Translations under genes and position numbers: made by a program | Source: an uncultured Bacilli bacterium | GTDB lineage: Bacteria > Bacillota_I > Bacilli_A > RF39 > UBA660 | Reading direction: 5' to 3' | Assembly: GCA_904420615.1 (NCBI GenBank) | Contig: CAJFVY010000018.1 | Coordinates: 1 to 51,741, forward strand | Length of the DNA: 51,741 bases | Notes under the pieces: model-generated | What the model was told of the DNA's origin: nothing | Database searches by the model: none | The model's input: only the letters and a program-made list of their open reading frames with translations | In this document: positions 10,119-45,862 of the stretch, piece by piece | How the letters are laid out: every line of letters starts with the position of its first letter | How positions within the stretch are numbered: position 1 is the first letter of the stretch

Positions 10119-10125
10119 AGATGTT

Positions 10126-11204: not shown

Positions 11205-11229
11205 AATATCATCTCCTTTTCTGTTAATA

Positions 11230-11586: not shown

Positions 11587-11916
11587 CTTGGCATATTTAT
11601 AATAACATAAAAATGACTTTTACAAATCGCTTTGTTTTATGTTTGAAAAGTTCGAGTTTGATATCAATCTGGTGCGAGTGTATAAATATCACTCATCAAT
11701 AACATTAGAACACTTTTTAATAAATACAGAATAAAAAATATCTTTTTTAATTTTTTTATAGTAAAATACTATATATAAAGGAAGGGATTTTGCATGAAAA
11801 ATATTTAATATGAATATATTCAAAGAATACAAAGTCATTATGTAGGTAGTGACTGCATTCAAATAACAATACCACATCATCTTAACAATGGAATAACAAT
11901 ATTAAATTCAGATGAA

Positions 11917-20672: not shown

Positions 20673-20688
20673 TTTTACCCCTCACCTT

Positions 20689-22845: not shown

Positions 22846-22848
22846 ACA

Positions 22849-23881: not shown

Positions 23882-23892
23882 TCTTTCGCCTC

Positions 23893-26151: not shown

Positions 26152-26185
26152 GATATCACCTACTTCATTACCTAATTAATCTATC

Positions 26186-27976: not shown

Positions 27977-28521
27977 GAAGGCATCACCGTCCCAAATTCT
28001 GTAGAAACTCCTCCATTCAAGAAGTTTTCTAATACAATTCTTAAATCATCATTGCTAACTTGTGAAGCATTTAAACCACAACCTGCCAAACCATTAATTA
28101 ATAGACGAATTCGTTTTTGTAATACATCCTCATTAGCATCCCTAAATAAAATGTAATATTCTGTATCAACAATATTATTACTCATAAAACTATTTCCTTT
28201 TTCAATATCTTGTAAAATAATTTTTCTAATAGCTGGTGATTGAGTATCATTATAAAGTAATTGTAATTGTGACATATAAACAGAAATATCAACTGGTCTA
28301 TCTGCTACAACCAACCAAAATTCAAAATCAATCATATTATAAAAGTTTTTTAAACTAATTAAAATATTATCTTGAGCTTGAGCATCAAGAATAAAAATAT
28401 TTCTAGGTGCGATTTTAACACCTGTGACTTTTTGTTTGTTGGAACAAATAATCATTCCATTACGAATACCTTCTACTGGTAACCAATCTTCTGTATATTG
28501 ACTACTTATTTTCTTGGCCAT
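27973..28521 (-). CDS. Separate ORF resembling the N-terminal domain of Gram-positive VirB4
   Basis: 182 aa. DWLPVEGIRNGMII...VTGVKIAPRNIFILD resembles the N-terminus of PrgJ/Orf16-type VirB4. The combined length of 182+596 aa matches single-chain homologues. Confidence 0.5.
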   Translation of the reverse strand: MAKKISSQYTEDWLPVEGIRNGMIICSNKQKVTGVKIAPRNIFILDAQAQDNILISLKNFYNMIDFEFWLVVADRPVDISVYMSQLQLLYNDTQSPAIRKIILQDIEKGNSFMSNNIVDTEYYILFRDANEDVLQKRIRLLINGLAGCGLNASQVSNDDLRIVLENFLNGGVSTEFGTVMPS

Positions 28522-28816
28522 CGTTATAGCACCAACCTTTCCATTTATATTTACGACGATTTGTCAAAAAAGAATAACACTCCATAATAACTGTTAATAC
28601 ATTGTGATAATTAGGAATTGGAATAATAAGAAATCCACAAATTGCTGCCGGTAATATAACTATAATAACTTGCCATGTAGTAGACATAGGCATAATAAGC
28701 AACATAATTAAGGTAGTAATTACTCCTATCGAGAATAAAATTAAGTCAAAGGGGCGAAAGATTCCTAAAATTAAATTGCCCCTTTTTGTATTTGCTGGTA
28801 TTAAATAATTATTCAT
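28502..28816 (-). CDS. PrgI/VirB3-like small membrane protein
   Basis: 104 aa with two TM helices. The N-terminal NTKRGNLILGIFRPFDLILF pattern fits. Lies immediately upstream of VirB4, as in Gram-positive T4SS. Confidence 0.55.
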   Translation of the reverse strand: MNNYLIPANTKRGNLILGIFRPFDLILFSIGVITTLIMLLIMPMSTTWQVIIVILPAAICGFLIIPIPNYHNVLTVIMECYSFLTNRRKYKWKGWCYNDGQENK

Positions 28817-28837
28817 TACTTAGTATCACACTCCTTA

Positions 28838-30946: not shown

Positions 30947-30991
30947 AAAACACCTACTTTCTACAAATAGTTCTTTACATAATAATTAGAA

Positions 30992-32179
30992 TTATTGTAT
31001 TCCACATGTTGGGTTACTAATTCCCAAAAATACATTTAATATTAATTGTACTATAAGCGGTATTAAAAACAGTGCTATGGCTGCAATTAATCTAATAATA
31101 AATTTGGATTGAACACTTTGCATTAGTTTTTCATCAGATGACATAATAGCTTTAATAAAATCTATAGCACTTAATAGTATTACCGCAATTGGACCGAATA
31201 TTTTAATATAATTTAATATTCGTTGTAAGATCCAGCCAACTGATCCTTCTTCCATAACAAATAAATTCTCACAACCAATTTTTTGATTAAAGTCCATTGT
31301 TTCATCATAATGGCTAACTGGATCACTAGCAGCAACAGCAATATAATTATAAGGATACATAAGACCATCATTTCCTTGATAATAAACATAATATGGATCA
31401 TTACCTTTTTCATAAGGATTTGATATACAATACTTATAATCAGATATTACATCACTGCCATTTATCATTTGTTCATGATAAGTCAACCAACCACTATAAG
31501 CACAATTATCTCTTGGATCCAAATCTGAATATTTAAAATCATTTGTTTGCTCAGCCTTAACATGATATACAGTCAACAAATTAGTATATGAATATGCATT
31601 AGCATCAATATTTTTATTTGAAATAAAGATATTAAAATCTGAATTTTCTCTATAAATATCTGCAACATATACATACTGTGGACACTGAGAAAAATCATAA
31701 TTTTCAGTACTAGATACATATGATGGAAAAGTAACAGTTCTTGATATATATACTTTATTATCAATAGTAAGAGGTGAATCTACATTTTTAAAACCATCTT
31801 CTGTATTGAAATCATAATCATTAACATACACATTTGGATCTATTGAAAATGAAAAATTATAATTTTGATTCCAATTTTTTACTTCATACGTATCATTTTC
31901 ATCATTAAGTGAAGCACCAAAGAATTCGAATAAAGTTGCATCAATCTTAGTTAAAGTATCATTTTCTCTATCATCAGGTCCATAGAGATTAATAGAAAGT
32001 TTAGCACTGGTTACTCCCACATCATCACTAACCATTGGTTCAATTGGTAGTGGTGTCTTATAAGTATATGTATATTCACACGTATTTCTTAGAGTATCAG
32101 CCTCTACAAAATTGGGCATAACAAAGTAACAAAAAACAAAAATAAAGAAAAAAGATTTTATTAGTATTTTAGCGCGCAT
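30992..32179 (-). CDS. Secreted ~300-aa domain fused to a C-terminal VirB2-like membrane hairpin
   Basis: 395 aa. Signal peptide ...NFVEA/DT. The C-terminal ~70 aa is paralogous to ORF 32358-32678 (ID..KA..SSDEK....QSK.I.R.I.A.A.F). Confidence 0.6.
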   Translation of the reverse strand: MRAKILIKSFFFIFVFCYFVMPNFVEADTLRNTCEYTYTYKTPLPIEPMVSDDVGVTSAKLSINLYGPDDRENDTLTKIDATLFEFFGASLNDENDTYEVKNWNQNYNFSFSIDPNVYVNDYDFNTEDGFKNVDSPLTIDNKVYISRTVTFPSYVSSTENYDFSQCPQYVYVADIYRENSDFNIFISNKNIDANAYSYTNLLTVYHVKAEQTNDFKYSDLDPRDNCAYSGWLTYHEQMINGSDVISDYKYCISNPYEKGNDPYYVYYQGNDGLMYPYNYIAVAASDPVSHYDETMDFNQKIGCENLFVMEEGSVGWILQRILNYIKIFGPIAVILLSAIDFIKAIMSSDEKLMQSVQSKFIIRLIAAIALFLIPLIVQLILNVFLGISNPTCGIQ

Positions 32180-32304
32180 AATTCAACTCCACCTTAATCA
32201 AATCAAGTATATCAAAAATAATAGAAAATAGCAATCTTAAATATTCGATACGAAACTGAACTCATACTAAATTCATTTTGATTTTCATATTATTTTTAAA
32301 TAAC

Positions 32305-32335
32305 ATAAAAAGCACTAAATTCCCATTCAGTACTT
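32305..32335 (-). terminator. Weak hairpin/attenuator after the VirB2-like gene
   Basis: Minus-strand RNA AAGUACU-(12 nt)-AGUGCUU forms a 7-bp stem with one G-U pair, followed by UUUUAU. It sits in the only sizeable gap (178 nt) of the operon. Confidence 0.4.
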
Positions 32336-32357
32336 TATCTTTTATAAAATTATTTTT

Positions 32358-32678
32358 CTAATTTTTAATACTATCCCAACAAGTCCACCATGTTCCCATA
32401 TCACCAGCATTTTGATCTACTGTAACTTTTGAAATTGTATTAAATAGTAAATTCACAATAGTAACTACAAAGAAGATTGCAACAGCATAAATACAACGTT
32501 TAATTAGTTTACTTTGTGCTTCCTTAACTTGTTTTTCATCTGATGAAATAACAGCTTTACCTAAGTCAATGGTACCAAGTACAATCAAAATGATGGGAAT
32601 ACCAATTTGAATAATTGGAAATACTCCAAGTTTTATAATTCTAACAAGAAATCCTAATCCTCCGCAAGCATCTACCAT
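32358..32678 (-). CDS. VirB2/TrbC-like pilin-type small membrane protein
   Basis: 106 aa from the ATG at 32678, with AGGAG 8 nt upstream. Two TM helices are separated by the charged loop DLGKAVISSDEKQVKEAQSKLIKR. Confidence 0.5.
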   Translation of the reverse strand: MVDACGGLGFLVRIIKLGVFPIIQIGIPIILIVLGTIDLGKAVISSDEKQVKEAQSKLIKRCIYAVAIFFVVTIVNLLFNTISKVTVDQNAGDMGTWWTCWDSIKN

Positions 32679-32734
32679 ACATATCACTCCTCACTTAATA
32701 ACTTAATCATATAGTAATTTTTTATTTTTGTCAA

Positions 32735-33715
32735 TTAATTCCTTTTAAATAAACCAAATATTTTACCATCTGATTTATTATCTTTATTTTGGACTATTCC
32801 TAATTTACCAAGAAAAGTCGCTAAAGCTGGATTTTTAGCTCGATCATTTAATGGTGGAATACTATAAAATACTTTTGTTTTTCCTTCATATTCAAAATCC
32901 ATAATATCACTATTAGATAATAAACTCTTATTTAAAATAATCTTCTTACCTTTTAACTCTTCCAATACTCGTCTATTTCTTCTCATCATTTTATTTAATT
33001 TAATAATAGAAGGTTCAATTAGATAAAGAACATCGCCACAAACGCCTTCATTATTTGAATCATTTAAGTCGATCAAAATAATAGCTGCATCTTTATGCTT
33101 TACTACTTCAGTCATCAAGTCTTGATCATTCACTGACACCATATTTCTATCATTAAAATAAAGAAAATCATGGCGATTTACTTCAATAGCTGTAACGCTC
33201 ATCCCATAAGTCTGCTCTAACTCTTTCTTTAAAAGATAAATTAAAGTAGTACTTCCAGCATGATCTGTAATATTTTTAATACCAATGATTCTAGAACCTG
33301 CTACTACTTTGGCATTTATCGTAGTAGATAAATCATTTAATTGTTGAATATGAGCTACATCTTTATAAGTATTGGGATGCTCTAAGAAGTATTTTACGCC
33401 ATCAAGATTTGTTGTAAAGTTATAAATGCCCATAGAAATAATCTTGGACAAATAACTACTAGACGTTGAAATTTCATTATTAGGAAGTACCAAAATAATT
33501 TTATCAGCATCTAATCCCATTGATATTTTTTGTAAGTTAGTAATATCGTTATAATTTTCAATAGCTGTAATATCTAAAATCATTCTGGCATAAAAGAAAT
33601 TTTTAAACATGTCAACTAATTCATCAGCAGTATGAACTCCATCTACACTTTTAATAATGTCTATATCTAATTCGCTTAACATGGATTTTGCTTCATTAGC
33701 AACTATTACATTCAT
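32735..33715 (-). CDS. TadZ/CpaE-like protein: receiver-like N-domain plus ParA/MinD-like domain with degenerate P-loop
   Basis: 326 aa. The N-terminal ~120 aa is receiver-shaped (MNVIVANEA...DKIILVLP). The C-terminal part has IIGIKNITDHAGSTTLIYLL where MinD/ParA proteins carry G-K-G-G-x-G-K-T. Confidence 0.45.
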   Translation of the reverse strand: MNVIVANEAKSMLSELDIDIIKSVDGVHTADELVDMFKNFFYARMILDITAIENYNDITNLQKISMGLDADKIILVLPNNEISTSSSYLSKIISMGIYNFTTNLDGVKYFLEHPNTYKDVAHIQQLNDLSTTINAKVVAGSRIIGIKNITDHAGSTTLIYLLKKELEQTYGMSVTAIEVNRHDFLYFNDRNMVSVNDQDLMTEVVKHKDAAIILIDLNDSNNEGVCGDVLYLIEPSIIKLNKMMRRNRRVLEELKGKKIILNKSLLSNSDIMDFEYEGKTKVFYSIPPLNDRAKNPALATFLGKLGIVQNKDNKSDGKIFGLFKRN

Positions 33716-33735
33716 CTTTTACACCATCTTTCTTT

Positions 33736-34197
33736 TTAGCGTTCATAAATTGTTGTGGTTTCACCTGATACTTGTAAATAATTACCTAATGGTAAAAACC
33801 TATTGAGAAATGGAATATTAATATTAACAAAGGTAACTACCTGATAATATGTGCCACGGTAATTACCACTATTCTTATTTCCGCTGACATTAATAGCATG
33901 AACACAGTATCCTGCAGTCCTATCACACGTATATTCACTAGGATCTAAGCCGTCAAAAACAGAAGTTTCATCAAAGTAATCAGCTGGTACATAGTAATTC
34001 ATTCTTTGTACATATGATGCTATTTGCGATTGAGCATTTGTTGTATATCCTTCTGATTGTTCAATAATATCAATAATCCCATTTTTAACCCGGAAAGCCC
34101 TCGTATAATTTACAGAATAAGCCAAATAACCATTAATCAACAATACAAATGCTAAAATTATTTGGAGTGCAAATGCTCCACCAACAGCTTCTCTCAT
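33736..34197 (-). CDS. TadE-like pseudopilin
   Basis: 153 aa. Short polar leader MREAVG followed by a hydrophobic helix GAFALQIILAFVLLINGYLAY. Follows the mini-pilin gene as tadE does in tad loci. Confidence 0.5.
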   Translation of the reverse strand: MREAVGGAFALQIILAFVLLINGYLAYSVNYTRAFRVKNGIIDIIEQSEGYTTNAQSQIASYVQRMNYYVPADYFDETSVFDGLDPSEYTCDRTAGYCVHAINVSGNKNSGNYRGTYYQVVTFVNINIPFLNRFLPLGNYLQVSGETTTIYER

Positions 34198-34286
34198 ACC
34201 TTTAAAACACCCTTCCCAAGCTTTCCGCGTTTTTTTCTTTACTTACTATCTTTTATGCTTTTTATAGCTAATTTATATTTTTTTGA

Positions 34287-34439
34287 TTAACTTCTCTTTT
34301 CATTCGTTGTAGATTCAGTCCACTGATCAGTTACAGTATTCTGAATAGTTGGCCAAAAAGCCCAAAAAAATACTATAATTGCACCAATAATAATGATAGT
34401 AATAACTGTCATATTTAATTCTCCCGTTGCTTCTTTCAT
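34287..34439 (-). CDS. Flp-like mini-pilin (ORF below the track cut-off)
   Basis: My own translation of the minus strand gives MKEATGELNMTVITIIIIGAIIVFFWAFWPTIQNTVTDQWTESTTNEKRS (50 aa). It has a polar leader ending in Gly and a 20-aa hydrophobic helix. An alternative start at M10 has a GGGAG RBS. Confidence 0.55.
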   Translation of the reverse strand: MKEATGELNMTVITIIIIGAIIVFFWAFWPTIQNTVTDQWTESTTNEKRS

Positions 34440-34473
34440 TTAAAAATACACATCCTTTCCTATTATCAAATTT

Positions 34474-34502
34474 ATTATAACAAATATTTTATTTGTTGTA
34501 AC
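34474..34502 (-). promoter_or_regulatory. Possible internal promoter for the mini-pilin gene
   Basis: Minus strand reads GTTACA (34497-34502), a 17-nt spacer, then TGTTATAAT extended -10 (34474-34482), about 35 nt upstream of the ATG. The AT-rich context lowers specificity. Confidence 0.4.
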
Positions 34503-34522
34503 TATTTTTTTTCATTTTTACG

Positions 34523-35302
34523 TCAACCCATCATATTAAACATTGACGACAAAATAACTACCATTGTTCCAAGACCTGTTACAACAAGCATAATCATTGT
34601 CTGTTGTTCCATATGATTTAATCTTTCTTTATATTTCGTTTCACGTGCTTTGTTTTGCAAATTCGAAACAGTTCTTGAAAACATCAATAATCGTTCTTGT
34701 TTTTTTTCTTGTTCTCCAATTCCTAGACGATATAAAAGACGCATCATTCGCATAGAGTCTCTAACTGGATATTCATTCGCAAATTCCATATAAGGATCAA
34801 TACTAGAGTCACCTGAATTAATTTTTTCTATCATTTCTCTTAAACCATGTTTAAATATTTCAGGTGCTGATTCCAAACTTTTACCAATTGCTACTGGTAC
34901 TGTATAATGTTGAATTAAAATCTCTAAGCTCTTTAAATAGTATGGCAACATCAAGTCAATTTCATGCAAGTGAGCCTTATAATACTTTTTTAATTGCGTA
35001 TAAGGAAGTTTAAAAACAAGAAAAGCTATTCCTATTGCTAATGCAACATTTAATAGACTAATAGAATCAAGAAAAATAAACAAAAAGATAAAGGCAACTA
35101 TTACTCCATATTGAATTCTTTTATCAAATAAAACATCTGGTTTTGCATCTTCTCCATATTTTGCTCTTACTAAAAAATCGTAATCATCTTCCCTCAAGAC
35201 ATTAAAATAATGTTTATTATCTTGAATAAATTTCTTACTATCAATCGTTTTATTATAAATTAATACAAACAAGATAATGACAGCAACGAATAACATTTCC
35301 AT
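34523..35302 (-). CDS. TadC-like T2SS-F family inner-membrane platform protein
   Basis: 259 aa. TM1, a TM pair, a cytoplasmic helical domain (AIGKSLESAPEIFKHGLREMIEKINSGDSSIDPYMEFANEY) and a C-terminal TM. This is the T2SSF layout. Confidence 0.6.
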   Translation of the reverse strand: MEMLFVAVIILFVLIYNKTIDSKKFIQDNKHYFNVLREDDYDFLVRAKYGEDAKPDVLFDKRIQYGVIVAFIFLFIFLDSISLLNVALAIGIAFLVFKLPYTQLKKYYKAHLHEIDLMLPYYLKSLEILIQHYTVPVAIGKSLESAPEIFKHGLREMIEKINSGDSSIDPYMEFANEYPVRDSMRMMRLLYRLGIGEQEKKQERLLMFSRTVSNLQNKARETKYKERLNHMEQQTMIMLVVTGLGTMVVILSSMFNMMG

Positions 35303-35304
35303 AA

Positions 35305-36198
35305 CTATTCAACCCCCACATTTTCATTATAGTATCTTTCACCTTTCATCAAGAAATAACTGTTAAAGATGATAATACCATGTAACATAACCTGAACATA
35401 TGTCTGCTCTATCATAGCTAAGTAATTTTCACTACCAAGCATATATTGTATTAACATAACAAGGGCAAATAGCATGACACCATATTGCAAGAATTTTTTA
35501 TGGAAATTAGCTCGATCAAGTCTATCACGATAAACACTTTCAACAAGGGTATCGATATCAAGTTGCATATTTTCAAGACTTTCTCCAGAATCTTTAGCAC
35601 CTTCTCTAGTGATTTGTAAGAATAATTGATGCATATTCTTGACTATGTAATATGGATATTTATTATTCATATACTCTATCGATTCGTCAATTGAACCATT
35701 TTCATACGAAAGTTCTATCATGTGTTCTACATCACTTTTCACAGGATCTTCTAAAATGCCTGAGTCTCTCACTCCTTCAAGAGATTTCACAAAGCTCTGA
35801 GTCGTTGTAAATTCCATAATAACATTACTTGTATAAACCTGAATTTGTTCAAAGATATATTCACTATATACTCTTTTACATCTTAAGAAAGCAAGATATG
35901 GAATAAGAGCAATAGCTAACGTGGCATAAATAATACTAACTATAATATTATAAAAATATATATATGTTACTACAGCTGCAAAGCCTCCTAACATTAATAC
36001 TTGAGTCAAATATTGTCTTGGCGTATATTCTTGTCCTAATTCTTTTGTTTTTTCTCTTACTACTTTAAAAGAATAAGGAGCAAAGCGATCATATAGAGCT
36101 TGAAATTGTGAGGTAAAGTATTTTGCTACATTCTGCCCTTTATAATTACGATACAATAAAACTAAGGCAGCAATAATAACTAATAAGAATAATACCAT
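35305..36198 (-). CDS. TadB-like T2SS-F family inner-membrane platform protein
   Basis: 297 aa with the same layout as the next gene (KSLEGVRDSGILEDPVKSDVEHMIELSYENGSIDESIEYM). Lies directly after the ATPase. Confidence 0.6.
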   Translation of the reverse strand: MVLFLLVIIAALVLLYRNYKGQNVAKYFTSQFQALYDRFAPYSFKVVREKTKELGQEYTPRQYLTQVLMLGGFAAVVTYIYFYNIIVSIIYATLAIALIPYLAFLRCKRVYSEYIFEQIQVYTSNVIMEFTTTQSFVKSLEGVRDSGILEDPVKSDVEHMIELSYENGSIDESIEYMNNKYPYYIVKNMHQLFLQITREGAKDSGESLENMQLDIDTLVESVYRDRLDRANFHKKFLQYGVMLFALVMLIQYMLGSENYLAMIEQTYVQVMLHGIIIFNSYFLMKGERYYNENVGVE

Positions 36199-36213
36199 AA
36201 ATTTTCCTCCTTC

Positions 36214-37464
36214 CTATTGATCAAAATTAATTCTTGGTAATGATTCTTGTGTATTTAATGAAGTTGTAGCAGTAAAATTTGGAGTAATAATCTCATTATT
36301 ATCTGGTACTTCTACATTAGTAGACAAGGAAGGAGCTTCTTGAGTATCCATACTTTTATTCATTACTTCTTCTACTTCATTACTTAAATTATTCATGGAA
36401 TCCCCAGTCGTAAATAACTGATCAATATGTATATTCTGATTTTCTAGATATTCTCTTAAGTGATCACTTGGCATATTTTGTACAGGAGCCTTACCAAAGG
36501 TCTTTTGATAAAGTAGATGTGTTTGTGGTTTATTATCATCATCTACATAAAATTCCACAACTTCATCAACTTCACGATGAAATTTTCCATACTCTTTACT
36601 ATAATAAGCTTTAATGTGAACTCCTAATTGAATATAACGATAAATAGTATTTAAAAATTGGTCTACATCAATATCAGACTCTAACAATGAATAAAGACGA
36701 TATGGTATAGAACTAGCTTTATCAGCATGAATAGTTGATAAAATATTGTGTCCTGATGAAATAGAGTTACGAACGGCCGTTACTGCTTCAGCACTACGAA
36801 CTTCTGATAGTAAAATCCATTTAGGATTCTGTCGCATACAGGCTACTAGAATTTCTGAATAACTAGCAATATTATTCGTTTTCATAGCTACAATGTCTCG
36901 ATGGGGAAAGATTTTATCTAAGTGTAATTCTAGTGTATCTTCGATGGTAATAATCTTTTCATTTTCTTTCGTATGACTAGCTAAGTATTTAACAAATTCT
37001 GTTTTACCAGAACCAGTTTCTCCACTAACCATTATATTACAATGCCCTTCAACACATTTTATAAGGATATCGTGAATATTGGCTGTGAAGTAATCCTCTG
37101 CTAATAATTTTTCTTTACTAAGTCTTATTTTAGCAGGCGTTTTACGAATAACAACAGCAATTCCATTTGTTGCAATTGATTCATGCAAGAAGTTAAGACG
37201 TAATTCTGTACTTTCAGCATCCAAAAATGGTTTGGCCATATTAAAAGTTGTTCCCATAACATTAGAACATTGAAAGGCTAATTTATCTACAAAAGCATCA
37301 TTTAGCCCTTCAATTTCTATTCGCTTCGAACCATAGGTTAATGATCTAATCCATATTTGTCCATGGTTACAATAGGAAATATCAGTAATATCATCATCAT
37401 CAATTAGTGGTTGAAATAAACCAAAGTCAATCTTATCAAAAATAGCATCATTCATTCTAACCAC
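36214..37464 (-). CDS. tadA: CpaF/TadA (VirB11-superfamily) secretion ATPase
   Basis: 416 aa. Walker A SGETGSGKTEF, Asp box IITIEDTLEL, Walker B WILLSEVR, His box GHNILSTIHA. Confidence 0.8.
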   Translation of the reverse strand: MVRMNDAIFDKIDFGLFQPLIDDDDITDISYCNHGQIWIRSLTYGSKRIEIEGLNDAFVDKLAFQCSNVMGTTFNMAKPFLDAESTELRLNFLHESIATNGIAVVIRKTPAKIRLSKEKLLAEDYFTANIHDILIKCVEGHCNIMVSGETGSGKTEFVKYLASHTKENEKIITIEDTLELHLDKIFPHRDIVAMKTNNIASYSEILVACMRQNPKWILLSEVRSAEAVTAVRNSISSGHNILSTIHADKASSIPYRLYSLLESDIDVDQFLNTIYRYIQLGVHIKAYYSKEYGKFHREVDEVVEFYVDDDNKPQTHLLYQKTFGKAPVQNMPSDHLREYLENQNIHIDQLFTTGDSMNNLSNEVEEVMNKSMDTQEAPSLSTNVEVPDNNEIITPNFTATTSLNTQESLPRINFDQ

Positions 37465-37482
37465 ACTCCTTTAAATTCATTT

Positions 37483-38307
37483 TTATTGTTGTTGTGTTGC
37501 TGCTAATTCCTGATCTGTCATAGCAGTAACATTATTAATAAAGTTACGTAAATCTTCACTAGATACTTTAACATCCCCTGGATCTTCTTCTAGACTCTCA
37601 GCTGTTGGTACTGGAATAATTTCAGAATCATAGGCTCTTAAGTAACTAGCTTTTCTAAGTAACAAGTGATATTCTTCTGGAACAGCAAAGATAATTTGAG
37701 CAGGTGTTCCTTTTTCATCAAGATTAGCAAATACGTTATTACCATTAGAATCAAAAACTGCTAAAACTTTTACGTTTTCTAGTAATTTACCAATCATAAT
37801 TCTATCTTCTGTAACATTACCATTTGCATCTGTTGGATTCGTAATTTTTAAATATATATCTATATAATTACCTGGATAGATAGAGTTACTATAAGAAGTT
37901 GTCATATTAACAGCCAAATTATATAATACATAACCTTTTGGATAATTATAAATAATTGCAGCTGGTAATTGATCACGAGTTACTACACTCCGTGAATAGA
38001 ATAAACTTCCTTCCGGAATGACGCTATCTCCTGCAGAATACATATCTATAACATCTTCTGCATTTCGATATACATCACCAGCTAACATAGCCGGTGGTAC
38101 TTCCATAGTACCAACCATATCTTCTGTTATTTGTGTACTTGGATTAATCGTAACTAAAGCATATGGTACACTAATTGGATTTACTGCTTGGTTTACTCGC
38201 ATATTATAACCTACATAAAGAACTATAATAGCTAGAATAACGCCAACTACAGTAACTGTATTTTTGTTAGTAAAAAACTTTTTTATACCAATTACTAAAT
38301 TATTCAT
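37483..38307 (-). CDS. CpaB/RcpC-like pilus assembly protein (SAF plus beta-clip)
   Basis: 274 aa. N-terminal TM, an SAF-like segment (INPSTQITEDMVGTMEVP...IPEGSLF), then GNYIDIYLK...LENVKVLAV...AQIIFAVPEEYHLLLRKA. Confidence 0.55.
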   Translation of the reverse strand: MNNLVIGIKKFFTNKNTVTVVGVILAIIVLYVGYNMRVNQAVNPISVPYALVTINPSTQITEDMVGTMEVPPAMLAGDVYRNAEDVIDMYSAGDSVIPEGSLFYSRSVVTRDQLPAAIIYNYPKGYVLYNLAVNMTTSYSNSIYPGNYIDIYLKITNPTDANGNVTEDRIMIGKLLENVKVLAVFDSNGNNVFANLDEKGTPAQIIFAVPEEYHLLLRKASYLRAYDSEIIPVPTAESLEEDPGDVKVSSEDLRNFINNVTAMTDQELAATQQQ

Positions 38308-38328: not shown

Positions 38329-38790
38329 TTAACCATCAACTTCACTATAATCAAGTTCCCCACGTCTTGTCATGTCTGTAATAAATTCATTGGTCTTATA
38401 AGTACTTTCTAATATAGCATCAATTTGATTACTAATACCTAATGTTTCGCTATTAAAAGTTGCAGAAGTTGAAGAATCAACTTTAATACTTACTTTAGGT
38501 GGTGTTTCATTAATATCATAAAATTTTATACTATAGCTTCGATTATTAGCAACGTTTTGAGCAAAACGACGTATAAAGCTTTCGGCAAACATTTCTTTAT
38601 CAATACGAAGATTACCATAGAGACGGTAATAACCAATATCTACCGCATCGGTCATAGCCGCCTCTGTAGTCTCTCTTAACAAATAATAATCAAGTTCATT
38701 ACCTGTTTGATAATTTTGAACAATATTTACTACACCGAAGGTAAAAAGCGCTAAGATAATAATTCCAATGATCATCATACCTCTACTCAT
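38329..38790 (-). CDS. Pseudopilin-like protein (TadF/TadG-like position)
   Basis: 153 aa. Short leader MSRG followed by a hydrophobic helix MMIIGIIILALFTFGVVNIV. No further motif. Confidence 0.35.
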   Translation of the reverse strand: MSRGMMIIGIIILALFTFGVVNIVQNYQTGNELDYYLLRETTEAAMTDAVDIGYYRLYGNLRIDKEMFAESFIRRFAQNVANNRSYSIKFYDINETPPKVSIKVDSSTSATFNSETLGISNQIDAILESTYKTNEFITDMTRRGELDYSEVDG

Positions 38791-38792: not shown

Positions 38793-41657
38793 TTACTCTC
38801 CTCCTCTTCTACTAGCACTCTCGCTTTGATAAGTATCGTAACAAAGTTGGCTATCTTGATAAATTGCAGTATCACACTGAGTAGCACTAGATTGATTATT
38901 ACATCCGATTAATCCACGTTTTACCAAGAAGTCTGTTCCATATCTTTCTGACATTTCATCAATAAATGAACTCTTATATACTGAAATACCAGGTGTTTTA
39001 TTAATTCCAGCTGAAGATTGTGATTTATCATCAGTTGGATTTAAATAACTTCCTTGTTCTGAATTATAATTTCGAATAGCATTAATAGTAGTTGGAGTTA
39101 AAGTAAATTCATAATCTAGATATTTTTCTTCATTTGCTTCATCATATATACTATTACCAGCTTTTTGAATATTTTCTCGTAATGCTACTGGTTGTACTAA
39201 ATAATCTTGATTAGACAAGTTAGTAGCACCACAACTCCAGTTAAAGTATGGATCTCTAGTACTTGATCCTTCTTCTGATGCAGGGAATAAATTAGTTAAC
39301 GAAATAGATCTAAAGCCATAAGCATCTGTAATATCCCATTCACAATCTTCCTCATCTGGATCACATTCATAATCACACTCTTCAACAGAAGGATCACATA
39401 TAGGATTATCATTATCGCAAATTTCAACTTTAGGATCACATTCTACCTTATCATCATCATCTGGTAAAGCCAAAGCATAGAAACATGTTAGTGGAATATT
39501 CCAGTTATAGTAACCAAAGTTTTCAATATTAACATGAATATTTTGATTTTCATTTACTTCTTGGTTAATAATAGACATTTCTTCACTCGTTAAACCATAA
39601 TTTTCTTTACTATGATCATAATATCTCTTCCATCTATACCAGTTAACATTGATTGGCGTAGAATCCATTCTAGTACAGAATTTACGACCAAGTTCTGTAT
39701 AAATGCTAGTATCTTCAGGTTCTTTATCTGTTATGATATGAGTTTTATTATTTAAATAATGTTTAGGGAAAGTTAATACATCACGATAAGTATATGGCGG
39801 ATATTCTTCCTCATAACAAATACCGTTTGTATCAATAACAATATCATCTCCTACAACATCAGTTCCACCTTTATTTTGTGTAGCATCATATATTACTTCA
39901 TAATCTTCATCACTTTCAATTGGATTATCAACAGTAATGTCAAAAGATGCAGTTCCTTCTGTTTGATTATTACTACATAATGATGCGGCTGCATCACACT
40001 TAGCTGCTACATTTTGTGTTTCTTGTTGTTGAGATTGTGATATCAAATTAGCTGCTTCTTGAGTTGGTACAGAATTCGCTGGACATTGTCCAATCAACTG
40101 ACATGAATCAGTACAATTGGCATCTACACCGTTTCTTGTTGTTTGCATTAAGAAACCATTTTGTTCACGATAAGCAAAAGTAGCACTACTACTAGCTAAA
40201 TTAGCATAACCAAGCCAAAGTTTAATTGTCTCAGCAGTTTGTTCTACACTATTTAAATACCATGGAGCTACTGAAATATAATTTTGTCCTCTATTGGCAT
40301 TCCAATATGTACGTCCTTGACTATCCTTTGCATATGAACCAAAATAAGATAAACCATTATCAGCAATCATTTGACTATATCTTTGATATAACTCTCTTGC
40401 TAGTGTCATCAAATCTTCTCCATCACGATAACGGACACCATACTCACTAAGCCATAAGTTTCTATTTTCACTTTCTGTATCAGAAGCATCTACTTTTCTA
40501 ATCGTATTTAAATCATCATTACTATTTTTAGTTTGATAAGTTAAAATAGTAGCATTATTACTATTAATAGATAATTCATCAGTTTCTTCATTCTCATATA
40601 CTTTAGTATAACATTTATTAATACATGCTTGCGTATATTCGCCGCCATCACATTCAGTAATACAATTATCAAAATCATCATCTGGTCCACCATTATGATA
40701 ATTGGTTCCTGTTTTTGTTGTACATTGTGGTACTAAAGTACATACTTCTGGAGGTGAAGGAATGTTTCCAGTATATTTACCAGAACAATCCATTGTTGTT
40801 CTAATTTCAGCTACATATTCAAAACACATTCCAATTTGAGTCTCTACTGGAGGATCCCAAATCACTTCTACTGTTTCAACACACTCTACTTCACAATCAT
40901 TAATGCCGTCATTCGTAACATCTATACTACTAGTTCCTGTATGATAATATTTTCTAGTACTATCACGTTCCGAAAAAGTATCACATTGAGCGCCAGTCAA
41001 ATCAGGATTTGTTGGATCAGATATTTCCTTGGCATCTGTTGGTATTACTACAGGATCACTTACATTTGATAAATTATGAAGATTAACTGCAGTCTCAATA
41101 TACTGATTAATTCTATCTATACTAAATGCATCTAATCTAGCTTGTGTCACTTGTTCTTCAAAACAAATAGATACTGCCGCTGCCATATTAGCATCATTTT
41201 GATAAGTATTACGATAATTTATGCAGGATTGAGAGTTGTAATAAGGATTAGAAACCAAACTTTCTACTGCAAAGCGATATGTCTTTGTACATGCTGTATC
41301 ACCAACATATGTCAAAATCAATTCGTTAGTGGTTGATACCATATCATTTGGATTTAAATTAATAATTAAATTACCATTTGATACACTAATAGAACTTTGA
41401 GCTATTCCATTTAAAGTAACTGTATAATCAGCTGCATTAAATTGATCACTATCATATTGAGAATTAATTGTAACTGTTGATCCTTCAACATTAATTGTAT
41501 TAGGCAATATTTCTATTTCACGGCATTGTTTTAATCCTTCTTCATTATCCTCACCAGATACAGACACCGTAGCAGTAACAAGAATAAAACCTACTAACAA
41601 AAACATAAGTGTAGATATTAGCCATGCTCCCTTTTTATGCTTCTTGATTATTGTCAT
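38793..41657 (-). CDS. Large N-terminally anchored, Cys-rich extracellular protein
   Basis: 954 aa with a TM after KKHKKG. Many Cys throughout. Contains the acidic Cys cluster ECDPKVEICDNDNPICDPSVEECDYECDPDEEDCEW. Confidence 0.6.
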   Translation of the reverse strand: MTIIKKHKKGAWLISTLMFLLVGFILVTATVSVSGEDNEEGLKQCREIEILPNTINVEGSTVTINSQYDSDQFNAADYTVTLNGIAQSSISVSNGNLIINLNPNDMVSTTNELILTYVGDTACTKTYRFAVESLVSNPYYNSQSCINYRNTYQNDANMAAAVSICFEEQVTQARLDAFSIDRINQYIETAVNLHNLSNVSDPVVIPTDAKEISDPTNPDLTGAQCDTFSERDSTRKYYHTGTSSIDVTNDGINDCEVECVETVEVIWDPPVETQIGMCFEYVAEIRTTMDCSGKYTGNIPSPPEVCTLVPQCTTKTGTNYHNGGPDDDFDNCITECDGGEYTQACINKCYTKVYENEETDELSINSNNATILTYQTKNSNDDLNTIRKVDASDTESENRNLWLSEYGVRYRDGEDLMTLARELYQRYSQMIADNGLSYFGSYAKDSQGRTYWNANRGQNYISVAPWYLNSVEQTAETIKLWLGYANLASSSATFAYREQNGFLMQTTRNGVDANCTDSCQLIGQCPANSVPTQEAANLISQSQQQETQNVAAKCDAAASLCSNNQTEGTASFDITVDNPIESDEDYEVIYDATQNKGGTDVVGDDIVIDTNGICYEEEYPPYTYRDVLTFPKHYLNNKTHIITDKEPEDTSIYTELGRKFCTRMDSTPINVNWYRWKRYYDHSKENYGLTSEEMSIINQEVNENQNIHVNIENFGYYNWNIPLTCFYALALPDDDDKVECDPKVEICDNDNPICDPSVEECDYECDPDEEDCEWDITDAYGFRSISLTNLFPASEEGSSTRDPYFNWSCGATNLSNQDYLVQPVALRENIQKAGNSIYDEANEEKYLDYEFTLTPTTINAIRNYNSEQGSYLNPTDDKSQSSAGINKTPGISVYKSSFIDEMSERYGTDFLVKRGLIGCNNQSSATQCDTAIYQDSQLCYDTYQSESASRRGGE

Positions 41658-42423
41658 TTGTTACACCTTCTTCCATTCTTTCTCTTATCGGTTCATAATT
41701 ATCATTTGTCTTAACATCAACTAATGTTTGTCTTTCTCCATCTCGTAATTTTCTAGCATCTACTCTAAAGGAATAACTACTTCCTGATCCATAGAATCTT
41801 GTACATGTATATAGAGTTAATAATAAATCATCTTTTGTAACATCAACATCCATATCATACATACTTTCTTCTTTTGACTTTTTTATATATTCTTCTAATT
41901 CCTCATCTGTAAATGTATCATAGAAAGAAGCACTTTGATCATCTTCTAGTAAAGCAACAGCATATATCCTATAAAGTGCAGTTTCACCAGTAACATCAGT
42001 AAACTCAATATACTGATTTTCATTTGTAAATTCAGGATAGATAAAAGCCATCAATTGTTCAAAACGAGTCATACTATCATCATCGATAATTGGATTTCGT
42101 GAAACATTACGAATATTATGCGAAATATAACTTGGATGATTACTGTTTTCATCAGGGAAAGCATTTGTCCAAGCAAATTGATATTCCATATTAGTAACAT
42201 CCTGAGCTGTAGTCCCCTGAATTAGTGCCATGTCAATATTGGTTCCTTCCACTCTTATCCAACCAACAACTTCGTCTCCATATTGTTTTGCCTGTTCTAT
42301 TTTGTCTTTTTCATCCATAATTTTAAAATCACTGGTTCGAACACTTAAAAGCCACCACAGCACTAATGTTATGGCAACTATTGCAATAATTAATCCAATA
42401 ATTAATAAACTTCGTTTTCTCAT
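41635..42423 (-). CDS. srtB: Class B sortase-like transpeptidase
   Basis: 262 aa with an N-terminal TM. VVGWIRVEGTNIDMALIQG, a His region SYISHNIR, the active-site motif LLLTLYTCT and a downstream Arg (SFRVDARK). It is collinear with S. aureus SrtB as I recall that sequence. Confidence 0.7.
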   Translation of the reverse strand: MRKRSLLIIGLIIAIVAITLVLWWLLSVRTSDFKIMDEKDKIEQAKQYGDEVVGWIRVEGTNIDMALIQGTTAQDVTNMEYQFAWTNAFPDENSNHPSYISHNIRNVSRNPIIDDDSMTRFEQLMAFIYPEFTNENQYIEFTDVTGETALYRIYAVALLEDDQSASFYDTFTDEELEEYIKKSKEESMYDMDVDVTKDDLLLTLYTCTRFYGSGSSYSFRVDARKLRDGERQTLVDVKTNDNYEPIRERMEEGVTNDNNQEA

Positions 42424-42435: not shown

Positions 42436-44289
42436 CTATTTTGAAATAGTATATGGATTAGCTTCTGTTCCATCCCCACCTGTTAAATATGCATCTTTAT
42501 CTATATATATTTTTAATTTTACACTTGCTCCTTCATAATCATGTAATCCAGTGTAAGGAATTGTTCCAATTGGAAAGACAATTGCTTTTGTATTAGCTTG
42601 TGTTGAAGAATCTATTAACCAATAACCAGGTCCAGAATTATCTGTTTTAGCACTGAAAATATCAAATGTAGATGGAATAGAAATCCTTGCTTTATATTTT
42701 TTGGTTGTTTTTTTGCCTTGATAAGTGATATTGCCTTCATATATTGGAACAGTTATTTCTTTATTTACTAATAGTTTAGTATCAATATATTCAATTCCTG
42801 TATTTACAATTTGATAACCAATGTTACCTTCTTCCTCAGGATTATAAACTTTATCATTATCACCATTATCATATCTAATTTGATAAGTTACTCCTTGATC
42901 ATCAGATAAAGTTCCAGTCATAATAAGTTCTACTTGATCATGGTCAATACCAGCAATCCTAAACGTATATCCAGAATAGTTTACATATTCACCAATATGA
43001 CGTGTATTTAATAAAGCATTACGTCTACCACTATTTTCCTCTATTATTATATAAGGATCTTCTGCAGTACCTGTACCAGATAACACTTTAGTGTCAGCAT
43101 CAATTCGTAAGGCTGGTCGAATATTGAACAAAGTATCCCCACTCATAGCTTCTATTTTTTCTGGATAAGCTGCAGGTGGAAATAAAGTCCAAGGATTATT
43201 GCTCTCATTAAAGTTAGCCAACCAAAACATATTGCTAGCATCTAAATAACTAAGGTTGTCTTGTAAACTTAAATTATAATCTTGTAAAGATAAAATTCCT
43301 ATTTGTCTTTCATCTGAATATCTATTACACTCAGTAGTATTATAATTGGCAGCTGTCACTTGATCATCACACCATTTACTATTAACAATTATTTTCTTAA
43401 AATCATCATCAAGTAAAGAATAAAAATAATCATTTAACCAGTCATCAAGACTACTATCAATAAAACGTCCATCTTCACTACTATAATCCACATTACTAAC
43501 TGGATCAGCACTAACTAATGTAATAGTATCATCTTCACTTACTCCAACAATTCTAAATAACATATGACTAAACATAATATAGTTATTAGGACCCGCTCCT
43601 TGATAATAACCATTTTCCGTATTAGCTTCCACAATACTAGATAAGCTTTCACTAACATTAATTGTTCTTTCTACTACTGTTGTATTATTCAATGAATCAC
43701 TAACAGTATAAGTAACTGTATACGTACCAACTTTAGATGTATCTACTTTTCCTTCAATAGTAACAGATGCTATATCCATTTCTCCGTCTACATTATCAAT
43801 AACACTTTTAACCCCTGGTTCTTCATAAGTATCTCCACGGCTAAGATCCATTTCTTTATCGCCATTTAATGTTATTTTTGGTCCTTCATGATCTACACTA
43901 GATTCATAATTTCCACATTTTAAATAAGTATAATACTCATTTTCACCATTTCGTTTTACAACTTTCACATTAGAGTTTTTATAATCACAGCGCTTATTAC
44001 TATAAACTTGTGTCAATTCTTCTACATAATCATGTTGTGCTAACGTTTCTAAGCTAACTGTTATAACTCTTCCTTCTTCTCTTGGTAAATAGCTAGAGTT
44101 AATTTCAAAGTATCTCTTTCCACCTTTATCAAGTTTTTCTTCTTGGCCTTTGAAATATATCTGTGGATAAATTATAGCAAACCAAACAATAAGAATAATT
44201 AGAATAATCGCTAAGATAATTACAGCAATCCTCAATAGTTTTTTCATCTTAGGCGTAAGTACAAATTTTTTATTTTTTTTCTTTTCCAT
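42436..44289 (-). CDS. N-terminally anchored surface protein with Ig-like domain and two copies of the domain found in ORF 19470-20672
   Basis: 617 aa with a TM. Ig-like segment GPKITLNGDKEMDL...GTYTVTYTVSDSLNNTTVVERTINV. Two units (NNYIMFSHMLFRIVGV...EDPY and YVNYSGYTFRIAGI...ANPY). Confidence 0.6.
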   Translation of the reverse strand: MEKKKNKKFVLTPKMKKLLRIAVIILAIILIILIVWFAIIYPQIYFKGQEEKLDKGGKRYFEINSSYLPREEGRVITVSLETLAQHDYVEELTQVYSNKRCDYKNSNVKVVKRNGENEYYTYLKCGNYESSVDHEGPKITLNGDKEMDLSRGDTYEEPGVKSVIDNVDGEMDIASVTIEGKVDTSKVGTYTVTYTVSDSLNNTTVVERTINVSESLSSIVEANTENGYYQGAGPNNYIMFSHMLFRIVGVSEDDTITLVSADPVSNVDYSSEDGRFIDSSLDDWLNDYFYSLLDDDFKKIIVNSKWCDDQVTAANYNTTECNRYSDERQIGILSLQDYNLSLQDNLSYLDASNMFWLANFNESNNPWTLFPPAAYPEKIEAMSGDTLFNIRPALRIDADTKVLSGTGTAEDPYIIIEENSGRRNALLNTRHIGEYVNYSGYTFRIAGIDHDQVELIMTGTLSDDQGVTYQIRYDNGDNDKVYNPEEEGNIGYQIVNTGIEYIDTKLLVNKEITVPIYEGNITYQGKKTTKKYKARISIPSTFDIFSAKTDNSGPGYWLIDSSTQANTKAIVFPIGTIPYTGLHDYEGASVKLKIYIDKDAYLTGGDGTEANPYTISK

Positions 44290-44302: not shown

Positions 44303-45862
44303 CTATTTCAATTCAAACACATACTGTTTATTACGGAATGTATAAACTAGCTGCAATGTACCATTAATATCGATATCATTAGGCAAATTCAAATATAACC
44401 GATTACCTGTATAATTCGTCTTTACAAGACTAGTACAATTAATGGACTCGACCTCTCCGCTATTATTACTATAATTAATTTTAGCATATTTATTAGAAAA
44501 GTCAACAAAACTATTGCCATCAAAACTATTACTAGTAAAATATATCTCTAGAATCTTACCATTAGGATTCGTAAGTGTTTGTGATATAACTCCACAACTA
44601 GATGTAGTAGTACACCTATAAGCATTATAAGTAGTTTGATCTTTTACTGTTGCTTCCATAATTCTTATATCTTCACCAGTTGGAAATTCTATACTTTCTT
44701 TCAAAGAAATAGTCTTATCTGTTTCTATTTCTCTTAAATCCTCTATATTTAACTTAGTCTTTTTTATCAAAATCCTATCAGTAACATCTTGATAATACAA
44801 AACATATTTACTAACATCATCATCTTTATTTACTCTAAACACTAACATAAAATTAATGGTTTCGCCCGGATCCATTTCTTCATCGCTATTAAAGGATGTG
44901 CCTAAATCACTAAAATAACGATTATACTGCAAGGTATATTTATACTCCTGATTAAGATTCATTAAGCGAAATCTATCAATATTAATCGTTCTACTCCAGT
45001 CAGTATTATTAGTTACTTGTAAATTAACAATCACAAAAGCTTTTTTACTATCTTCAACAATATAATTACCATTAGTCGTTCTTTCTGTTATATAACTGTT
45101 TGTTACTTTTATAGTGTAATTATTGGCAACAAAGCTACTTCCTTCAGAATATGTTTTATGTAATACACCAAAATAGTAATAAGTATAACCGCCAATTCCA
45201 CCTATAATTATCATTGTGATAATTCCAAATACTAATCTATGTTCTCTATAAACATATTTTACATTACGCCAAAACCTTTTCCAAGTTCTTACAAATACAT
45301 CTTTATCTATTTCAACATGTACTTCAAACTCTTCTCTATCTTCTTCGTTTATTTCTAAATATTCTTTATCATTTTTAAAGCCAAACTTCTTTAAGTCTAA
45401 TCCTAAACTACGTATTCCTAATAAAATAAACACTAAAAATTGTAATAGATAAGCAATTAATAATAAGTCCCTCGCAGCCATTATGGCTGTAATGGTTGAA
45501 TATTCATCATAAGTATTAAAGTAATTACGAACATAAACAAATAAACCAAACAAAAATAAATATTCTGCTAAGACTGGTAAATATATTTTCCAAGGCTTTT
45601 TTTTATGTCTTAAAAGTACCATTAAAGTTATAATAATAGCCATAATTATTATTAGTACTAAAAATAAACCAGGTCCAATATAATTTCCAATTGGCTCTAA
45701 GAAGTCATTATAACTATTAGTAGCAATAAAATCTTTAACAAAAGTTCTAACAACTGTTGTTTTATAAAAAACAAAAATACATAGTAATAATAACCCTATA
45801 TGAATCTTTTGAAAGTTTTTAATGAGAAATGCGTAAGGTTTACGAAATATCACTTCATTCAC
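44303..45862 (-). CDS. Polytopic membrane protein with C-terminal beta-sandwich-like ectodomain (first gene of operon)
   Basis: 519 aa with about 5 TM helices in the first 230 aa. The later segment AFVIVNLQVTNNTDWSRTINIDRFRL...PGETINFMLVF is DUF4352-like. The tracked start is GTG and the exact start is uncertain; the GTG at 45853 has better RBS spacing. Confidence 0.5.
   Translation of the reverse strand: MNEVIFRKPYAFLIKNFQKIHIGLLLLCIFVFYKTTVVRTFVKDFIATNSYNDFLEPIGNYIGPGLFLVLIIIMAIIITLMVLLRHKKKPWKIYLPVLAEYLFLFGLFVYVRNYFNTYDEYSTITAIMAARDLLLIAYLLQFLVFILLGIRSLGLDLKKFGFKNDKEYLEINEEDREEFEVHVEIDKDVFVRTWKRFWRNVKYVYREHRLVFGIITMIIIGGIGGYTYYYFGVLHKTYSEGSSFVANNYTIKVTNSYITERTTNGNYIVEDSKKAFVIVNLQVTNNTDWSRTINIDRFRLMNLNQEYKYTLQYNRYFSDLGTSFNSDEEMDPGETINFMLVFRVNKDDDVSKYVLYYQDVTDRILIKKTKLNIEDLREIETDKTISLKESIEFPTGEDIRIMEATVKDQTTYNAYRCTTTSSCGVISQTLTNPNGKILEIYFTSNSFDGNSFVDFSNKYAKINYSNNSGEVESINCTSLVKTNYTGNRLYLNLPNDIDINGTLQLVYTFRNKQYVFELK

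Follow-up and report, generated by a model that had tools for sequence, protein, structure and literature searches.

How could a sortase serve a pilus and secretion locus in which no product carries a sorting signal? The question is raised by a 262-aa protein encoded on contig CAJFVY010000018.1 of an uncultured Bacilli bacterium (assembly GCA_904420615.1; 1.07 Mb, 28% GC, 92 contigs, 92% complete). The whole stretch of 51,741 nt was analysed and is referred to here as the window. It contains a Tad pilus/type IV secretion system (T4SS) locus of about 26 kb, a co-directional gene train that runs from position 45862 down to 19470 with the sortase gene in third place (Table 1). An earlier interpretation of the letters alone, called the sequence-only reading below, had taken this gene for a class B sortase. 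The present analyses confirmed that it is a real open reading frame (ORF) and that its product is a class B-type sortase homologue, but not an ordinary SrtB. Together with the gene directly upstream, which specifies a 617-aa surface protein, the sortase gene forms a clade-specific cassette added to a near-universal chromosomal locus, and its product may act on proteins of this locus in a non-canonical manner.

A class B-type sortase homologue

The start codon of the sortase gene is preceded at a distance of 9 nt by an AGGAG ribosome-binding site, which lies just past the stop codon of the 617-aa gene, and its 3' end overlaps the start of the next gene, encoding a 954-aa protein, by 23 nt. In hidden Markov model (HMM) searches, the product passed the threshold of the Pfam family Sortase (PF04203, peptidase C60) narrowly, with 27.8 bits compared to a gathering score of 26.6. 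SrtB (TIGR03064) was the sole NCBIfam sortase model matched. The subclass named in the sequence-only reading was therefore recovered, but the score of 51.6 bits is far below the equivalog cut-off of 153.75. Among the five other sortases of the genome there are two bona fide SrtBs, encoded on contigs C29 and C58, which reach 177 and 167 bits with the same model. The top sequence matches in the PDB were to SrtB of S. aureus (E = 1e-12).

The AlphaFold2 model of the protein, built on 27 family members, has a predicted local distance difference test score (pLDDT) of 88.3 and a predicted template modelling score of 0.85. It matched 118 PDB chains at E <= 0.001 in a Foldseek search; the best 50 of these 118 are all sortases, and the 19 best matches are all class B enzymes. 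The transmembrane (TM) anchor at approximately residues 6-26 is oriented with its N-terminus inside (MRKR and TM segment), which places the catalytic domain, a beta-barrel, outside the cell according to the prediction. The elaborations described as specific for class B, an N-terminal helix and a long beta6/beta7 region with helices (PMC3019223), are both found in the model, as helix 39-46 before beta1 and as helices 164-167 and 173-186 between beta6 and beta7. In addition, the model shows a C-terminal extension of about 35 residues consisting of a strand (237-239) and a helix (244-260). In a phylogenetic tree, the protein branches with SrtBs, apart from the class A/D-like genes of the same genome.

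Table 1. Positions of the sortase gene, its active site codons and other features mentioned in the text. Numbers without a contig or locus label refer to the window.
Feature	Position	Strand	Remarks
519-aa multi-TM protein with extracellular DUF4352	44303..45862	(-)	first gene of the locus
617-aa N-anchored surface protein	42436..44289	(-)	pilin-like N-module, immunoglobulin-like domain PF16403, 2 x DUF6273; adjoins the sortase gene upstream
Sortase, 262 aa	41635..42423	(-)	ORF call, HMM matches, AlphaFold2 model
His102 codon (I-S-H-N)	42118..42120	(-)	aligned to the catalytic His of SrtB (Y-G-H-H/N); His in 183/183
Thr206-Cys207-Thr208-Arg209 codons (TLYTC-TR)	41797..41808	(-)	Thr in 181/181 and Cys in 181/181 aligned members
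Ser218 codon	41770..41772	(-)	position of the canonical beta8 Arg according to the profile alignment and to MAFFT
954-aa secreted Cys-rich protein	38793..41657	(-)	no anchor, no sorting signal
DUF5411 protein	38329..38790	(-)	pilin-like fold in the model (helix 3-53 and beta-sheet)
Rest of the locus	19470..38307	(-)	RcpC/CpaB-like to 400-aa DUF6273 protein, the latter at 19470-20672
50-aa pilin	34287-34439		
VirB2-like hairpins	32358-32687, 30992-32179	(-)	
517-aa protein with Myb/SANT-like repeats	7497-9050	(-)	
Ordinary SrtB with NPNTG or NPETG protein	L154 (G054) 9369-12511; L164 (G076) 902-3801		other genera
PPKTG protein	C30:4430-6142		adjacent sortase
SrtB-like gene next to the PPKTG protein	C30:3658-4383	(-)	
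NPETS protein	C58		adjacent sortase
EVPNTS protein	C63		adjacent sortase
EVPDTY protein	C82		adjacent sortase
NPETN protein	C43		no adjacent sortase
EVPNTV protein	C83		no adjacent sortase
NPITIS proteins	C78/C35		no adjacent sortase

Active site residues and conservation in the family

About 190 close homologues of approximately 260 aa were detected in metagenomes, one of them from Clostridium sp. CAG:451, and a profile search of the whole library yielded 82 cluster representatives at E < 1e-30. Conservation was counted in 183 nearly complete members of 235 aa or more, and a MAFFT alignment was calculated of the family, the genome's own SrtBs, a fragment of S. aureus SrtB and a related family from Clostridia. 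His102 and Cys207 fall into the columns of the sortase His and Cys. Both by profile and by MAFFT, the column of the beta8 Arg is occupied by Ser218. Most of the SrtB layout proposed previously, the TM anchor, the GWIRVEGTNID block, ISHN and TLYTC, was thus found to be present and conserved, while the distal Arg that was part of the proposal was borne out only in part. The column of Arg220, two residues past Ser218, is variable (113 Arg, 22 Lys, 48 other residues), and Arg224 aligns with a Lys of ordinary SrtBs.

Asn103 and Asn106 are conserved in all 183 members, and the family-specific Arg209, two residues after the catalytic Cys in the motif TCTR, is Arg in 178 of the 183 and Lys in three. 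Directly after His102, 11 residues are inserted (NxS..P), because of which a pairwise phmmer alignment misplaced the catalytic His; this insertion was otherwise seen only in one sortase family of Clostridia. The invariance of His102, Thr206 and Cys207 and the near-invariance of Arg209 argue for retained catalysis. Judging from these residues, the sortase most likely still operates by a Cys-His mechanism with a thioacyl intermediate formed via Cys207 and His102, and Arg209 could plausibly have taken over the role of the beta8 Arg. The corresponding residue in S. aureus SrtB is, as we presume, Asp225, beside the active site.

The sortase gene as part of the Tad pilus/T4SS locus

The gene order at the start of the locus, with the 519-aa and 617-aa genes followed by those for the sortase, the 954-aa protein, the DUF5411 protein, RcpC and TadABC, is shared without change by 10 genomes from different genera and by contigs of Clostridium sp. 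CAG:451. The sortase is therefore an integral, syntenic member of the locus, as had been supposed from its position in the window. The stop/start overlap with the 954-aa gene recurs in nine of the 10 relatives. Across these genomes, sortase identity is between 32 and 56%, compared to 76-87% for VirB4.

To describe the distribution of the locus, 201 genomes of the order were sampled, and a class-wide sample comprised 49 genomes of the same family and 350 of other families. The VirB4 gene of the locus was detected in 192 of the 201 order genomes, with 69-90% identity among the matches listed, and the DUF5411 gene in 160. Within the lineage, this chromosomal locus belongs nearly to the core and is not a mobile element. 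Members of the sortase family were found in only 37 of the order genomes (E <= 1e-37), the remaining matches being paralogous SrtBs (E >= 3e-13). In the class-wide sample, 14 of the 49 same-family genomes carried the sortase, while the 350 others yielded no member. A tblastn search of 72,556 plasmids with the sortase protein gave no match.

In the sortase-bearing loci of all 10 relatives, the 617-aa gene is located upstream of the sortase gene, whereas it is missing from this position in all 20 sortase-less loci examined. Large secreted Cys-rich proteins are encoded at the 954-aa position in loci of both kinds; the clade-specific unit therefore consists of the 617-aa gene and the sortase gene. 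At the position of the sortase, 11 of the 20 sortase-less loci harbor a gene for a protein of about 220 aa (approximately 210-240) with a signal peptide, a C-terminal TM segment and a basic tail. Its Cys residues follow the pattern ..C....L...A..I...Y.. / ..C.G...(Y/F).LC.(K/R)W, and no Pfam match was obtained (loci L147-L166). It was considered as a hidden sortase homologue and rejected, as there was no HMM match and the protein is built from a signal peptide and a C-terminal TM segment.

Sortase genes of a different kind have also entered this region. In two sortase-less genomes, ordinary SrtBs of 524 and 546 aa adjoin proteins ending in NPNTG or NPETG, a TM segment and a basic tail (Table 1), one pair inside the locus between pilin and pseudopilin genes and the other just upstream. 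Such pairs in or beside the locus indicate that sortase-adhesin cassettes have been recruited there more than once. The two SrtBs consist of an N-terminal cytoplasmic domain of about 280 aa without Pfam match, a TM segment and the SrtB domain. SrtB open frames of 516-565 aa are present in many genomes of the order.

Downstream of the DUF5411 gene follow genes for RcpC/CpaB-like, TadA-like ATPase and TadB/TadC-like proteins, the 50-aa pilin, a pseudopilin and a 326-aa protein, and then for two VirB2-like hairpin proteins, a TrbL/VirB6-like protein, a split VirB4, an M23 peptidase, VirD4 and a 400-aa DUF6273 protein. The pilins are Tad/type IV-like, possess the class III leader MKEATGE and are devoid of sorting signals. 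In the 617-aa and 400-aa proteins, the N-module is a TM helix followed by A..Y.....LP....L..L...Y...C..V.V....Y.Y...L.CG; it resembles the head of a pilin or pseudopilin to which large adhesin domains are joined. With the DUF5411 protein also modelled as pilin-like, the number of such subunits encoded in the locus may be five or more. According to the sequence-only reading, the large surface proteins are anchored by N-terminal TM segments. This is not so for the 954-aa protein, whose orthologues start with signal peptides of the Sec type (such as VKA|E, VNA|E and ANA|A). Among the window products scanned, neither a relaxase nor an integrase family was detected.

Further observations concern the hairpins and a gene outside the locus. 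The VirB2-like proteins have one conserved Cys before the first TM segment (..C.GL.P..) and one after the second (W..CW or a terminal C-G-[IL]-x), both predicted to be extracellular, in sortase-bearing and sortase-less genomes alike (L046-L065, L147-L166). VirB2/TrbC pilins of Gram-negative systems are cyclised, and a disulfide could possibly join the ends of the VirB2-like proteins as a non-peptide counterpart of this head-to-tail cyclisation. The 517-aa protein contains several Myb/SANT-like DNA-binding repeats (PF00249, 62 bits; PF13921), and DUF2726 is matched weakly, below its threshold (15.5 compared to 24.7 bits); such an architecture is uncommon in bacteria.

Relatives of the sortase in Clostridia

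In the profile search, a second tier of longer proteins was detected, characterized by YGHNWTNxSxNPR...TCTR...QRFVVMAR (P0205-P0269). They belong to a family that is widespread in Oscillospiraceae/Ruminococcaceae, with 555 loci, for example in Yanshouia hominis. Both families share the post-His insertion, TCTR, LRxGE after beta8 and a C-terminal extension, but the Clostridia proteins retain the beta8 Arg and are mostly of greater length, with N-terminal linkers of low complexity. In the tree, the family of the window sortase forms one clade (98/98), separate from the ordinary SrtBs of the same genomes, and the YGHNWTN family an unresolved basal grade on the class B branch. The neighbourhoods of 80 of the 555 loci were inspected. 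In eight of the 80, a neighbouring protein ends in an NPxTG- or [TV]PxTG-type motif (NPDTG, NPQTG, NPATG, NPKTG, VPKTG), and any gene of the Tad/T4SS locus was nearby in at most three; the YGHNWTN family is not linked to this locus.

Search for substrates

Canonical substrates of the sortase should end in a recognition motif, a hydrophobic stretch and a basic tail. All ORFs of at least 80 aa in the 1.07-Mb assembly were scanned for such C-termini. None of the products of the locus ends in a hydrophobic stretch and a basic tail, and accordingly no substrate of the NP(Q/K)(T/S)(N/G/S) type is among them. For a pilus-polymerising sortase, of class C or of the Spy0129 type of class B, one would expect neighbouring genes for pilins that have a pilin-motif Lys and a sorting signal; such genes are also missing from the locus. 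In a further scan, extracellular locus proteins were searched across 11 orthologous loci for P-x-[TS] columns with Pro in at least 70% and Thr or Ser in at least 60% of the orthologues and with the motif kept in the window copy; no qualifying column was found. The matches obtained were located in cytoplasmic proteins or were not kept in the window copy (NPGTF of the M23 peptidase, FPGTW of the 954-aa protein). The observation that no product near the sortase carries a sorting signal was thereby upheld, and no canonical substrate had been overlooked in the locus. Given this result, a non-canonical substrate, already suggested in the sequence-only reading, became the leading idea.

Outside the locus the situation is different, since seven to eight proteins with sorting-signal-like C-termini are encoded elsewhere in the genome. 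Canonical-looking signals are therefore available to a sortase acting on distant products, as had been considered, but four of these proteins adjoin a sortase of their own (Table 1). Among those without one, the DUF6273 proteins of contigs C78 and C35 (KNPITISS, TM segment and RKRSK) were rejected as remote substrates for lack of co-occurrence with the sortase: the family is absent from the sortase-bearing genera g13, g23, g18 and g11 and present in sortase-less genomes. The SrtB-like gene on C30 (126 bits, below the cut-off) has no Arg at all after the catalytic Cys (...LQTCYFGIDNSYLIVVAKKI) and is therefore another apparent Arg-less sortase; it adjoins the gene for a protein with PPKTG, a TM segment and a basic tail.

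Candidate motifs within locus proteins were also followed up. The 395-aa VirB2-like fusion ends in GISNPTCGIQ, which had been regarded as an NPxTG-like signal. The orthologues show, among others, DPLCG, NSTCG, NTCG or NQVCG instead, so that only Cys-Gly-[IL]-x is kept, and the C-terminal Cys occurs in sortase-less genomes as well; the proposal had to be abandoned. In PVPT[AND]ES near the C-terminal end of the RcpC-like protein, reminiscent of EVPTG, the Thr is variable and PVP is conserved without the sortase too. LPTG/LPxxG after the TM segment of the 617-aa protein was dismissed, since its LP belongs to the pilin-like N-module common to the 400-aa paralogue and is also found in sortase-less genomes. 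The same applies to the C-termini G.GT...PY.I[KR] of the 617-aa and 400-aa proteins, which are the end of the DUF6273 domain and likewise present in the absence of the sortase.

The DUF5411 protein contains N-Y-Q-T-G-N-E at residues 26-32, just after the TM part. In sequences from sortase-bearing genomes, N-[YF]-[QST]-T-G-x-[ED] is found in 25 of 30 and S-G in three. In sortase-less genomes the consensus is N-[LVI]-T-x-x-[DN]-E, and T-G occurs in one of 19. The AlphaFold2 model of this protein has a pLDDT of 69 overall and of 56 at NYQTGNE and shows residues 3-53 as one continuous helix. NYQTGNE may mark a site of shedding-type cleavage, but as a candidate it is weak.

Proposed function and alternatives

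From these analyses, the protein may best be seen as a dedicated non-canonical sortase of the fast-evolving attachment module, most likely acting on a protein of its own locus. This is the interpretation we favour, tentatively, and we hold it at somewhat less than probable. Its history might have been as follows. The ancestor would have been a class B sortase from the family nearest to the Clostridia sortases that are found next to NPxTG proteins. In one subclade of an order of gut Bacilli with small genomes, a sortase gene and a 617-aa gene would then have been inserted together into a vertically inherited chromosomal Tad pilus/T4SS locus, at its variable end devoted to attachment. Subsequently, the beta8 Arg would have been lost and the Arg at Cys+2 kept, while the beta4/beta5 loop became longer and the C-terminal extension was gained. 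The present-day protein would be a membrane-anchored extracellular Cys-His enzyme that forms a thioacyl intermediate. We infer that it is active and that it transfers its substrate to an acceptor, the best candidate substrates being the 617-aa protein and the translationally coupled, anchor-less secreted 954-aa protein. The recognition signal should be something other than a C-terminal motif, TM segment and basic tail, and as an outcome the adhesin layer of the machine would be fixed or matured on the cell wall. Accessory sortase genes are usually located together with those of their substrates (PMC3019223). The rates of change fit a module that evolves rapidly: mean distances are 1.23 for the sortase, 1.18-1.20 for surface proteins and 0.2-0.4 for the machine core, and the 954-aa protein is fast-evolving with 1.99.

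A number of observations weigh against this proposal. A Cys-His dyad together with the beta8 Arg has been described as strictly conserved in sortases (PMC3019223; PMC11987632), but none of the 183 family members has Arg in the respective column, where Ser, Gln, Thr, Asn, Asp, Val or Glu is found; activity can therefore not be taken for granted. In none of the locus proteins was a candidate recognition motif identified. The Cys-rich proteins at the 954-aa position of sortase-less loci imply that the 954-aa protein does not depend on the sortase. In a mirror-tree comparison with the sortase, neither neighbour is singled out: the partial correlation is 0.45 for VirB4, as against 0.41 for the 617-aa and 0.20 for the 954-aa protein. 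The association of the sortase with one clade is a single evolutionary event and as such without statistical weight. Finally, knock-out of a sortase gene located upstream of the region PaLoc in plasmid pCS1-1 of C. sordellii had little impact on conjugative transfer (PMC5770547).

Alternatively, the sortase could anchor proteins with canonical sorting signals encoded elsewhere, for example the orphans with NPETN, EVPNTV or NPITIS, and its place in the operon would merely ensure co-regulation. Three or four signal proteins without an adjoining sortase (C43, C83, C78/C35) are available for this role, and NPxTG-type proteins are neighbours in the nearest outgroup family, that of Clostridia. Nevertheless, we consider such remote anchoring unlikely. 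Five other sortases are present, and two of them are bona fide SrtBs suited to NPxT[NS] signals. The sortase and the C78/C35 family do not occur together, and the fixed position and translational coupling in the locus point to a local partner. Loss of catalysis would offer another explanation for the absence of visible substrate signals. A dead pseudo-sortase might serve as a structural subunit, with the surface proteins encoded next to it as its binding partners or clients, and the missing canonical Arg, the SrtB score far below threshold, the extra loop and the C-terminal extension would all be in line with it. The strict conservation of His102, Asn103, Thr206 and Cys207 and the nearly invariant Arg209, in 183 sequences that are otherwise 30-60% identical, are hard to explain without chemistry at this site, and the pseudo-sortase appears quite improbable.

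Two further possibilities retain the chemistry and change its outcome. The enzyme may be a processing endopeptidase, a sheddase, which cuts for example the DUF5411 protein at N-Y-Q-T|G-N-E and releases an ectodomain with a new N-terminal Gly. A Cys-His dyad without the beta8 Arg would suit such an activity, the T-G pair is common in DUF5411 of sortase-bearing genomes and rare in the others, the site is within reach of the membrane-bound sortase, and its sequence resembles the extended signal D-N-P-K-T-G-D-E of B. anthracis SrtB, in which P2' and P3' matter (PMC11987632). On the other hand, the Pro of sortase signals is replaced by Tyr or Phe, the motif follows a TM segment instead of preceding it, and it lies in a continuous pilin-type helix in the model, of low pLDDT at this point, whereas an extended conformation would be expected of a sortase site. 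T-G could be no more than a helix-softening pair of a pilin alpha1, its correlation with the sortase is a single-clade character, and a cut would remove the helix needed by a pilin-like subunit; altogether, shedding of DUF5411 or another locus protein seems improbable. The idea that the enzyme matures the VirB2-like proteins, cutting them near the C-terminus or cyclising them head to tail at NPT|CG, or that it stands in for a prepilin peptidase of the Tad-like pilins, is largely refuted and can be given very little credit. In its favour are the GISNPTCGIQ end, the cyclisation of Gram-negative VirB2/TrbC pilins and the absence of an A24 peptidase from the window. However, NPT is not conserved and the C-terminal Cys is equally present without the sortase, and a prepilin peptidase is not missing at all, since Peptidase_A24 is encoded on contig C23 (55 bits). 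Cleavage of class III leaders takes place on the cytoplasmic side, so that the catalytic domain of a protein with the N-terminus inside and the C-terminus outside is on the wrong side of the membrane, and the leader MKEATGE is identical in sortase-less genomes.

Returning to the favoured non-canonical sortase, a more far-reaching version may be formulated. The family could represent a new functional class with a Cys-His dyad and an assisting Arg at Cys+2, acting on N-anchored or signal-peptide-secreted proteins without a C-terminal signal and thereby covalently coupling, or shedding, components of a type IV filament/T4SS machine. Such a sortase would serve a Tad-like pilus apparatus and not cargo of the LPxTG type. 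We regard this as conceivable but rather doubtful.

Comparison with known systems

With the class B sortases SrtB of S. aureus and B. anthracis, Spy0129 of S. pyogenes and SrtB of C. difficile and C. perfringens, the window sortase has in common the N-terminal anchor, the beta-barrel with class B helices, a block similar to GW..(V/L).GT.I.YP, the His that closes beta4 and the T-L-x-T-C that closes beta7, as well as the role of an accessory enzyme encoded in the operon of a surface organelle. It differs from them in Ser218 in place of the beta8 Arg, the Arg at Cys+2, the 11 extra residues after the His, the C-terminal extension of about 35 residues, the low SrtB score given above and the lack of a nearby substrate with NPxTx, TM segment and basic tail.

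For attachment, T4SSs of Gram-positive bacteria usually rely on adhesins anchored by sortases. Sortase/adhesin modules are known from pCF10, where PrgA/B/C are combined with the host SrtA, from pCS1 of C. sordellii with srtB and CnaB, and from the 'Hodor' megaplasmids, and sortase genes are known on or beside transfer genes. As in the window, a surface-attachment module heads the T4SS gene train in Gram-positive conjugative elements. The conjugation operon of pLS20 starts with an adhesin/exclusion module, and the paper on the pLS20 family mentions no sortase; by analogy, the first four genes of the window locus would correspond in position to the variable recipient-attachment module of pLS20-like operons. 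In contrast to the window locus, the adhesins of these elements carry canonical LPxTG-type signals. A further difference is that the window locus resides on the chromosome and is near-universal in its order. What is unusual is the combination of an enzyme without the canonical Arg but with TCTR, loop and tail, a coupled locus without any tripartite signal, and a near-universal chromosomal machine.

Sortases are defined by the His-Cys-Arg triad and by the tripartite C-terminal sorting signal, and the 183-member family departs from both. If the enzyme is inactive, it would provide a clean case of a pseudo-enzyme recruited as a subunit of a machine. If it is active, the definition of sortases by their catalytic residues and the logic of their substrates would both be widened, and a new recognition rule might make the enzyme useful as a new tool for ligation. 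Sortase chemistry would then be linked to a core, apparently domesticated type IV filament/T4SS machine of an abundant uncultured gut lineage.

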